A stretch of 64,000 nucleotides of DNA from NCBI RefSeq assembly GCF_001677475.2, contig NZ_CP015229.1; one strand, given 5' to 3'. This document shows, piece by piece, positions 1 through 27,417 of the stretch. Numbering within the stretch: the first letter of the stretch is position 1; every line of letters starts with the position of its first letter. Below the pieces are notes generated by a model. The model made no database searches and was not told where the DNA came from. It was given only the letters and a program-made list of their open reading frames with translations. This DNA comes from Escherichia coli (lineage in GTDB: Bacteria > Pseudomonadota > Gammaproteobacteria > Enterobacterales > Enterobacteriaceae). Both the position numbers and the translations under genes were made by a program.

Positions 1-880
1 CGAAGGAGAAGACCACATTCACCATCCACAGACCGAGGACCATGGTGATCACAGACTCGGTTTCGTACATCCAGGCATCGCCACTGCCATAGCGCTGGTT
101 GAGTAAGTAAGCGACAAATGCCAATGCTGCTGCAAGGGTACAGCCACGAGACGGCGTGGTAAACAAGGCTTTAAGATGAGGGAAAATGAAAGCCAGTGCG
201 CCGAGGATAAAGAACGGCAAATAAAATAGCGTTTGCATGACAATAAAATTGAACATGCCGTTACTCAGAATGGGCGGATACACAATAAAAATCGTTCTTC
301 TTATTACCGCATAGCCGATGCCGAGGCACAAAAAAATCACCGATAGTTTTACCATCGAGAATTTTTTATTCGTTTTATCAGAATTTTCTAAATTATTTCT
401 GATGCGTTTGAATATCCAGACGCACAGCGTCGTCATGACCACTAACACCAATAAAAACCACAGGTGCGATATTAATTCCCAGGCCAACGTATTATATTTG
501 TCATACAATGACAGTCCAGGCCAACTTTCCGCTTTCCCTTTGACGTATTGCAGCATAATAAATTGCGGCAATGTCAGTAGGGGGATGGCTGTTAACATCG
601 GGATCCCTACACGTTCGACACGTACTTTCCACCATTTTTTCAAGGGATAGCGTAAAAAAAGCATGTAGGAAAAGTACCCGGATATAACGAAAAATACCTG
701 CATGCGGAACGAGTGGATGAAGTCATTAAAAAGGGTCAGCCATAATGACGGTTCGGCGCTATTCACATGCCATGTATGGCTTGAATAGATTAAAGAAATA
801 TGAAAAGGGATCCCTAACAACATCAGCCAGGCGCGGATGGAGTCGAGGAAATATTCACGTTGCGCGGGTACTGGGTTCAT
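1..880 (-). CDS. opgC: Glucans biosynthesis protein OpgC (MdoC), partial; C-terminus runs off the window start
   Basis: Open minus-strand frame from ATG at 880 ([11 protein letters not shown]..., hand-translated) with no stop before position 1; absent from ORF track because truncated; divergent from opgGH as in E. coli. Confidence 0.75.
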
Positions 881-1162
881 ATATGGTTAACTAATCTCGG
901 ATTTTTCGTCTTATCCCTGTCGGGTTATGCCTTTAGGCTTGTTGCCATAGCGACACCGATCTGACCACGCCAGGCGCAGGCTTCAAGGTTTTTATGCATA
1001 GCATCATCGCTACCACTAACCAGAATGGAAGCGTCTGTAAGACGGTTGATAAATAAATTTGCTGGCAAACCCTACACGAAGTCGATGCTTCTGTCTTTAG
1101 GAGAAGCACGGAAAGTGAAAACGGTTGCAATCAGGTGCTTAATCCATGAGCCAGCGTGCTGA

Positions 1163-5351: not shown

Positions 5352-5456
<105 letters not shown>

Positions 5457-10984: not shown

Positions 10985-11245
10985 AAGTGCATCCAAAACG
11001 AATTTGCGAGAGAAAGAAAATGGCGTGTCGGAGAATGAATTGCAACACAAAAATAACAAATTGAATGATATTTATTTTTATTTCAATAATTTTGAATTAA
11101 TAATGAAAGAATCTTCATAAGTTTAGTGGGTTCAGCATCAGAGATGTCTGGTGAGTGCTGTAGAAGCAGGAAGAATCTCATTCAATTTTTCACGCTAAAT
11201 GAAAGGGAGATTAAATATTTGTCAGTTTATGTCAGTGCGGAAAGA

Positions 11246-11359
11246 CTAAAAATAAAACACGTAGATCAGGTCCATAATTGCCAATAGTCCCCAGAGAAAA
11301 AGATAAAGCATCAGATGCTCGCGAATATTATTGATGAGATAGTGCAACAGCCGACGCAT
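11246..11359 (-). CDS. yceO: Small membrane protein YceO (37 aa)
   Basis: Hand-translated minus-strand [40 protein letters not shown]; below ORF-track size cut-off; matches recalled YceO and its position between yceJ and solA. Confidence 0.6.
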
Positions 11360-11406
11360 TAAATACTCCTGTAAAAACGGCCTCATTCTGGAGGCCGTAA
11401 TGATGA

Positions 11407-12525
11407 TTATTGGAAGCGGGAAAGCCTGAATGGCGTTAAATCAAAATCGCTTTTTTTGTCTTGCGCAAAATCGGCAGCTATTTCCCCTAAAACTGACGCA
11501 AATTTAAAACCGTGCCCACTCAGGCCGGTAATGAGCAGTGTATTATCGTGGCCGGGTAGGGTATCGATAATAAAATCTTCGTCAGGCGAATTATCATAGG
11601 TGCAGGCAGCGCCGTACAGGCAGCAACCGATACCCGGCAATACATTGCGCAAGAACGGGAAGGCTTCTGACCCATCACTGGCCACTTCCGCAAACGGAAC
11701 ACGTTCATCCGCTGAATGGATAACCTGGCCTCCGTTATGTTTGCCAATCTTCAACGCGTCGTTTTCTGCCGGAAAACCATAATATTGATCGCCATTGGGC
11801 AGTTCACCGGTAAACGCCGGGAATTTATTCTTCACGCTATAGCGGCCATCGGCCTGATACCAGGCAAATACTTTACGTACGGGCTGGACAGGCAGCTCCG
11901 GGAGCAGGTCTTTTACCCATGTTCCCGCGCAGACAATCGCTTTTTTCGCCTGATACTCACCGTCAGCTGTTTCAATAGTTACGCCATCATCGCCATGACG
12001 AATTGCGGTGACCGGGCAGTTGAACAGTTGCGCACAGCCCGCTTCCTTCGCCAGTTGGATCCAGGTTTTAATCGCCAGTTCGCTGCGCAAAAAACCGGAA
12101 TCAGTCTCAAATAAGCCGATGTAGTTGTCCGGGACGCGTATTTCTGGCCAGCGGGCCATAATCCCTTGCGCATCGAGCTTTTCAACGTTGAGTTGCCACT
12201 GTTCGGCGCTGTGGGCGACGTTGGCGAGAAATGCGGAGTCAGCCGGGCCGAGGTTAATGACACCAGAGCGTACAAAAATGGGATCATCTTCGTTGTGGCG
12301 GGAGAGATCATCCCACAGTGTTTGCGCGCGGAGGACCAGCGGGACATACTTTTCGCCTTCACCATAAGCATGGCGAATTAATCGCGTATCGCCGTGGTGG
12401 CTGCCGTGTTGATGCGGTGGCATATGGGCGTCGGTCATTAGCACGTTTAAACCGGCGCGGGTTGCATAATACCCGGCGGCAGCGCCTACGGAACCGCTGC
12501 CAATAATGATGAGATCGTATTTCAT
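11407..12525 (-). CDS. solA: N-methyl-L-tryptophan oxidase SolA
   Basis: 372 aa; FAD-binding [14 protein letters not shown]-terminus. Confidence 0.93.
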
Positions 12526-14549: not shown

Positions 14550-14654
14550 TAATCTCTATGCTCCGGCTGAAGGGATGTTTTTGCCGGACACAAAGGATAA
14601 GCGGAAACGTTTTCCTTTGCACGAAAAATAAAGGGCGCGAATGCGCCCTCGTGA

Positions 14655-26497: not shown

Positions 26498-26536
26498 TTG
26501 AACGATTGATGACATTGCAATAAAAGCGAGCGGACT

Positions 26537-27417
<881 letters not shown>

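Follow-up and report, generated by a model that had tools for sequence, protein, structure and literature searches.

The window, that is, the whole stretch of 64,000 nucleotides analysed here, comes from Escherichia coli and contains three genes that are absent from its program-made ORF list. yceO, rpmF and the start of opgC are real E. coli genes dropped by a 60-codon cut-off, and since all three were already known, we regard them as a gap in annotation and not as a discovery. The features to which the text refers are listed below.

1..880, minus strand: 5' portion of opgC/mdoC (codons 1-293 of about 385), the remainder lying beyond the window edge (from the ORF, profile matches and the RefSeq mdoC start at 880)
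11246..11359, minus strand: yceO coding sequence, 37 aa plus stop, a small predicted membrane protein of the DUF2770/YceO family (from translation, Pfam, RefSeq identity and conservation)
11366..11370, minus strand: AGGAG ribosome-binding site, preceding the 37-aa ATG by 6 nt (read from the sequence)
11373..11398, minus strand: stem-loop 3' of solA, ACGGCCUC-CAGAAU-GAGGCCGU and then a U run, terminator-like (RNA fold, 8 pairs)
11384..11386, minus strand: upstream in-frame ATG that starts a 46-aa model (ORF 11246..11386), within the loop and 3' arm of the hairpin
11407..12525, minus strand: solA (N-methyl-L-tryptophan oxidase), upstream of yceO (from the ORF, RefSeq, and solA- and yceO-anchored searches)
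39258..39263, plus strand: GAGGAG ribosome-binding site of rpmF, 8 nt before its ATG (read from the sequence)
39272..39445, plus strand: rpmF, 50S ribosomal protein bL32, 57 aa plus stop (from translation, and profile and PDB matches)

The first-pass annotation had translated yceO (11246..11359, minus strand, 37 aa) and rpmF (39272..39445, plus strand, 57 aa) by hand and had read 1..880 as an opgC fragment. Both translations hold: yceO has no internal stops, rpmF runs cleanly to its stop codon, and the in-frame stops that had been named as grounds for refutation were absent from both on re-check. The gene names it gave agree with the family, RefSeq and PDB matches. Its account of why the genes were missed, namely the size cut-off for the two small genes and truncation at the edge for opgC, was likewise borne out, as the default 60-aa list is empty at yceO and lacks rpmF, and the list for 1..900 lacks the edge-open opgC. 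Recalling ORFs at a minimum of 20 aa recovered the 37-aa yceO frame only in part as expected: the frame is present, but as the internal-ATG version of the longest mechanical ORF, which has 46 aa (11246..11386) and also starts with ATG. In the RefSeq annotation of the whole syntenic span of a K-12-lineage genome, yceO and rpmF are the only coding sequences below 60 aa, and the list of missing genes is therefore complete as well as correct.

At the left edge, the minus strand is open for 293 codons from the ATG at 880 (880..2), whereas translation of the plus strand of 1..880 gives many stops, which assigns the fragment to the minus strand. Against the MdoC equivalog NF003014 the peptide scores 479.3 bits (cut-off 338), covering profile positions 1-294 of 386, and it also matches PF01757 (Acyl_transf_3) at 3e-33; these tests cover the N-terminal three quarters of the protein, the C-terminal quarter lying outside the window. 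E. coli OpgC (MdoC) belongs to the same equivalog, has the same Acyl_transf_3 domain and is likewise divergent from mdoG-mdoH, the difference being that the window contains codons 1-293 of about 385 only. OpgC is an acyltransferase needed for the succinylation of osmoregulated periplasmic glucans.

The rpmF peptide scores 73.9 bits against PF01783 (Ribosomal_L32p; cut-off 21.3) and 65.2 bits against TIGR01031 (cut-off 22.6), and its residues 1-57 are matched by the 57-residue bL32 chain of 416 PDB entries (E 3.7e-34). Compared with E. coli RpmF/bL32, we found no difference in full length or in place between yceD and plsX. The gene encodes bL32 and is part of the yceD-rpmF-plsX-fab cluster. All that the 60-aa list offers at this position is three spurious minus-strand ORFs of 63-138 aa (38950..39366, 39078..39296 and 39206..39397), antisense to yceD/rpmF; selecting ORFs by length alone lets in such false positives.

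Except for one island, the window and the K-12-lineage chromosome are collinear, with 98.5-98.7% identity. A short non-collinear stretch was also seen in the flgF-flgG spacer (26514..26607), which has 93 nt here versus about 126 nt in the K-12-lineage genome. Four Rfam elements matched at their gathering scores: the SraB sRNA between yceF and yceD (38494..38662, plus strand), the RNase E 5' UTR element rne5 (36297..36633, minus strand), the PyrC leader (14550..14599, minus strand) and the ES036 sRNA (5377..5419, minus strand). All four are expected for such a region of E. coli.

The island (45077..51807, about 6.7 kb) lies between fabF and pabC and is missing from the K-12-lineage genome; it is low in GC (37-47%, with about 50-52% in the flanks), and the adjacent 5' end of pabC has also diverged. 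On the minus strand it has a chaperone-usher fimbrial operon of six genes (ORFs 45144..51129), whose products are a major subunit (177 aa), a PapD-type chaperone (225 aa), an usher (857 aa), a tip-like protein (346 aa) without a Pfam match, and two minor subunits (174 and 175 aa). The island was absent from the 5,426 complete RefSeq E. coli genomes searched, where matches cover the flanks only. The usher gene found 60-80% identity over at most 20% of its length. For the tip-like protein, named NCBI relatives are at most 55% identical, and the best match (93%) comes from Logan assembly SRR30814692, which has the same operon at 94% nucleotide identity.

Identity and conservation of yceO

The 114 nt at 11246..11359 are identical in sequence and length to the RefSeq coding sequence of WP_001253418.1 ('YceO family protein') in the K-12-lineage genome. 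The peptide matches Pfam DUF2770 (PF10968) at 79.1 bits (cut-off 25; 2.4e-22). A 601-bp probe around the gene found matches at 95-99% identity in 5,424 of the 5,426 complete E. coli genomes, and the matched segment is annotated with solA and 'YceO family protein'. YceO of E. coli K-12 (b1058) has the same 37 residues (100% identity) in the same gene order, bssS-solA-yceO-yceJ-yceI; the sole difference lies in the gene model, which is 37 aa in current RefSeq and in the first-pass annotation but 46 aa in older entries and in work of the Storz laboratory. NCBIfam release 20 returned no family for the peptide, so the RefSeq product name must come from another rule, and Pfam membership is unaffected.

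An exhaustive search of 1.84 billion representative proteins with YceO gave just 37 matches at E<=0.001, and no relatives were found in the PDB even at E<=10. Among the candidates, P0111, a 241-aa repeat protein, was rejected as a spurious low-complexity match, and longer 'homologues' (P0100, P0101, P0109, P0115 and others) were set aside as over-extended calls or read-through fusions with the 3' end of solA.

An open frame of 37 codons is insignificant alone: the 3 kb around this one are overlapped by 45 ORFs of 20 aa or more. The reality of the gene rests instead on conservation and family matches. We compared solA-anchored loci, taking one genome per species, and a DUF2770 frame follows solA by 50-140 nt in 52 of the 54 informative enterobacterial species loci; the two without it are Enterobacter sp. 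BIGb0383 (L034) and Shimwellia (L050). Among the 52 distinct nucleotide sequences, variable sites number 29, 18 and 36 at the first, second and third codon positions (each of 36), and the mean pairwise pN/pS is 0.28 in the annotated frame versus 0.82 and 2.08 in the shifted frames. N11, R13, H15 and D30 are invariant across about 20 genera, and the length stays at 37-39 aa. Taken together, these patterns of substitution indicate that yceO is a real gene under selection at the level of its protein.

Short ORFs are plentiful here, as the 45 counted above illustrate, and YceO has an extremely low abundance and no established function, all of which would suit a chance ORF in the solA-yceJ spacer that makes no functional protein. 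A chance frame would not be expected to show a low pN/pS in the annotated frame alone, four residues held invariant over some 20 genera, or conservation of both its length and its place after solA, and the tagged protein has been detected (PMC12529367). We consider the probability of such an origin to be negligible.

Three single loci deserve mention. In Salmonella enterica subsp. arizonae (L027:3660-3770) yceO has been lost through a premature stop at codon 23 (W23*). In Enterobacter sp. BIGb0383 (L034:3613-3945) there is no yceO frame, and the solA hairpin and yceJ-yceI are retained. A 492-nt contig of coverage 0.75 in a Terrisporobacter petrolearius assembly (L056, NZ_JAHZMO010000143.1) carries a solA fragment 98% identical to that of the window, and is most likely E. 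coli contamination of that assembly.

The solA hairpin and the start codon of yceO

In the window, the hairpin lies 9 nt after the solA stop codon and consists of an 8-bp stem followed by UUUU(U)A; a consensus terminator scan did not call it. A GC-rich hairpin lies between solA and yceO in nearly all 52 loci (L029 has no clean one), and its stems differ, for example GGCCUC/GAGGCC, GGCCCCG/CGGGGCC, GGCUCCGG/CCGGAGCC and AGGCACAU/AUGUGCCU, among others. Given this variation, it is the structure of the hairpin that is conserved and not its sequence. The U run is present in Escherichia, Citrobacter and Salmonella, and absent in several genera, including the Kluyvera-type loci. In the latter, a run of A flanks the hairpin 5', and no run of U follows it 3'; the hairpin thus looks oriented as a terminator of trhO, in which case yceO would be antisense to the 3' UTR of trhO.

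Two in-frame start codons have been used for yceO, nine codons apart, and the comparative evidence favours the downstream one. The codon at the 37-aa start is ATG in 46, GTG in 5 and ATA in 1 of the 52 distinct sequences, and in 23 of the 52 loci no in-frame start exists upstream of it, which leaves it as the sole possible start. A purine-rich, GGAG- or GAGA-like element stands at the position of the AGGAG in most related loci, as judged by eye. Further, all of the PF10968 profile (positions 1-36) falls on residues 10-45 of the 46-aa form, so that it starts at M10, i.e., the start methionine of the 37-aa form, and most of the alignments from the search of 1.84 billion proteins start between residues 9 and 11 of the query. 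From these comparisons, the native and conserved product is probably the 37-aa protein, and translation would most likely begin at the ATG at 11359, by way of the AGGAG 6 nt upstream. This is the start that the first-pass annotation had chosen, although it was silent on the 46-aa model of the databases.

It could be argued that the real E. coli product, or an additional one, is a 46-aa protein initiated at the ATG at 11386, the shorter form being a mere choice of the annotation pipeline. The 46-codon frame is open, many database entries have 46 aa (one cluster alone has 341 member sequences), and the sampled species of Escherichia all retain the upstream in-frame codon, as ATG or TTG. The 46-aa form is the one used by the Storz laboratory, and it can be expressed from a plasmid (PMC12529367). 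Outside Escherichia, however, the extension is absent or closed by stops; the in-frame start nine codons upstream occurs in Escherichia only, plus one Kluyvera locus, where it is a coincidence. The upstream AUG has no Shine-Dalgarno site before it in the sequence and falls within the 8-bp GC hairpin, in its loop and 3' arm, and the hairpin already explains the conservation of these 27 nt within Escherichia. The family profile and the distant homologues, as described above, begin at M10. As for direct evidence, the sole published peptide from the extension was obtained with the 46-aa ORF expressed from pBAD24 (PMC12529367), a construct with vector-driven initiation, and it does not report on native initiation. 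We therefore hold a 46-aa product to be unlikely, and the 37-aa form is used in what follows.

No promoter turned up near yceO on the minus strand in a consensus scan for promoters and terminators. Immunoblots detect the chromosomal YceO-SPA fusion, whose level is lower than that from plasmid expression by a factor of at least 10,000, and YceO is also on a list of proteins detected by top-down MS (PMC12529367). With no promoter-like site and a protein that is very scarce yet detectable, read-through of the solA hairpin would be the most economical account. Transcription of yceO is thus probably at a very low level, whether by such read-through or from an unmapped promoter. The supplement of a 3'-end mapping study has no entry for yceO, and it classifies one position as internal to solA (PMC7815308); YceO is not mentioned in PMC11429745.

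Gene neighbourhood of yceO

Downstream of yceO, the window and about 40 loci have yceJ-yceI. This arrangement, together with the prediction of YceO as a one-helix membrane protein, raises the idea that the neighbouring cytochrome b561-type protein YceJ (with YceI) is served by YceO as an accessory subunit or regulator, much as cytochrome bd is by CydX. Synteny weakened it. Thirteen loci (in Kluyvera, Pseudocitrobacter, Yokenella, Pluralibacter and E. albertii) keep yceO without yceJ-yceI beside it, and the reverse is seen in L034, which has solA and yceJ-yceI but no yceO. The two genes are also about 260 nt apart, with a conserved TGACA repeat of its own in the spacer, and the constant neighbour of yceO is solA and not yceJ. 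In this light a YceJ subunit appears highly improbable.

What these comparisons leave is a role linked to SolA, because the succession solA-hairpin-yceO is near-invariant across about 20 genera while the downstream neighbours change. Three distant YceO members that were found independently of solA also lie right after a DAO/solA gene, one of them being directly followed by trhO. YceO may be functionally coupled to SolA, either as a tail-anchored helix that would tether or modulate this flavoenzyme at the inner membrane, or through gating of yceO expression by read-through of the hairpin; we put this idea forward as speculative and improbable.

Several features of these spacers were also observed. 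The TGACA repeat is a direct one, TGACA-N5-TGACA, with a 10-bp period, located at 11220..11234 on the minus strand, 11 nt after the yceO stop codon. Of the 40 loci with yceJ-yceI, 30 have it exactly and 38 with at most one mismatch, versus none of the 13 loci without these genes, and it is also found in L034, where yceJ-yceI are present and yceO is absent. Judging from this distribution, the repeat probably serves yceJ-yceI as a promoter or regulator site. The loci without yceJ-yceI are L039-L045, L047, L048, L053-L055 and L061 (Kluyvera, Pseudocitrobacter, Yokenella and Pluralibacter). In L061, yceO and trhO are convergent and 2 nt apart (yceO ends at 2900 and trhO starts at 2903).

Predicted form and possible role of YceO

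AlphaFold2, run on a 34-sequence alignment, models YceO as one continuous helix over residues 2-36 (mean pLDDT 93.4). The best 19-residue Kyte-Doolittle window is 16-34, with a value of 2.15, and residues 1-15 have a net charge of +2 and a hydrophobic moment of 0.65. By these criteria, YceO is predicted to have a single transmembrane helix with its positive charges on the cytoplasmic side, and the simplest model predicted for it is a single-pass, tail-anchored helix of the inner membrane. Residues 1-15 would form a cationic amphipathic cytoplasmic segment with the motif N-N-I-R-E-H, bearing the invariant N11, R13 and H15, and residues 16-37 the tail-anchoring membrane helix, with the invariant Asp30 inside it.

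Two later papers list yceO as an acid-stress small protein (PMC12997748, PMC8765455). The phenotype reported for the deletion is sensitivity to acid stress. Elsewhere in the literature the gene appears only in passing (in a deletion list, a Tn-seq table and an expression table).

In its general features YceO resembles the E. coli inner-membrane regulators AcrZ, MgrB, MgtS and CydX, which are likewise shorter than 50 aa, consist of a single hydrophobic helix, occur at very low abundance and have stress-linked phenotypes. By analogy, YceO would work most plausibly like these small one-helix regulators, probably through binding to a larger protein in the membrane or close to it. In contrast to them, however, YceO has no known partner, has essentially no residues C-terminal of its membrane helix, and has a conserved Asp within that helix; it also shows no sequence relationship to them, with no PDB or family match beyond DUF2770.

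Overall, we consider it highly probable that the locus is best explained as a whole by three known genes, with the 37-aa YceO as a predicted membrane helix made at a low level. The importance of these results is one of quality control: a track of closed ORFs with a 60-codon minimum loses genuine genes, here a ribosomal protein gene, that of a conserved small membrane protein and a gene cut by the edge. For YceO itself, the choice of start codon affects the design of tags, synthetic peptides and MS targets.
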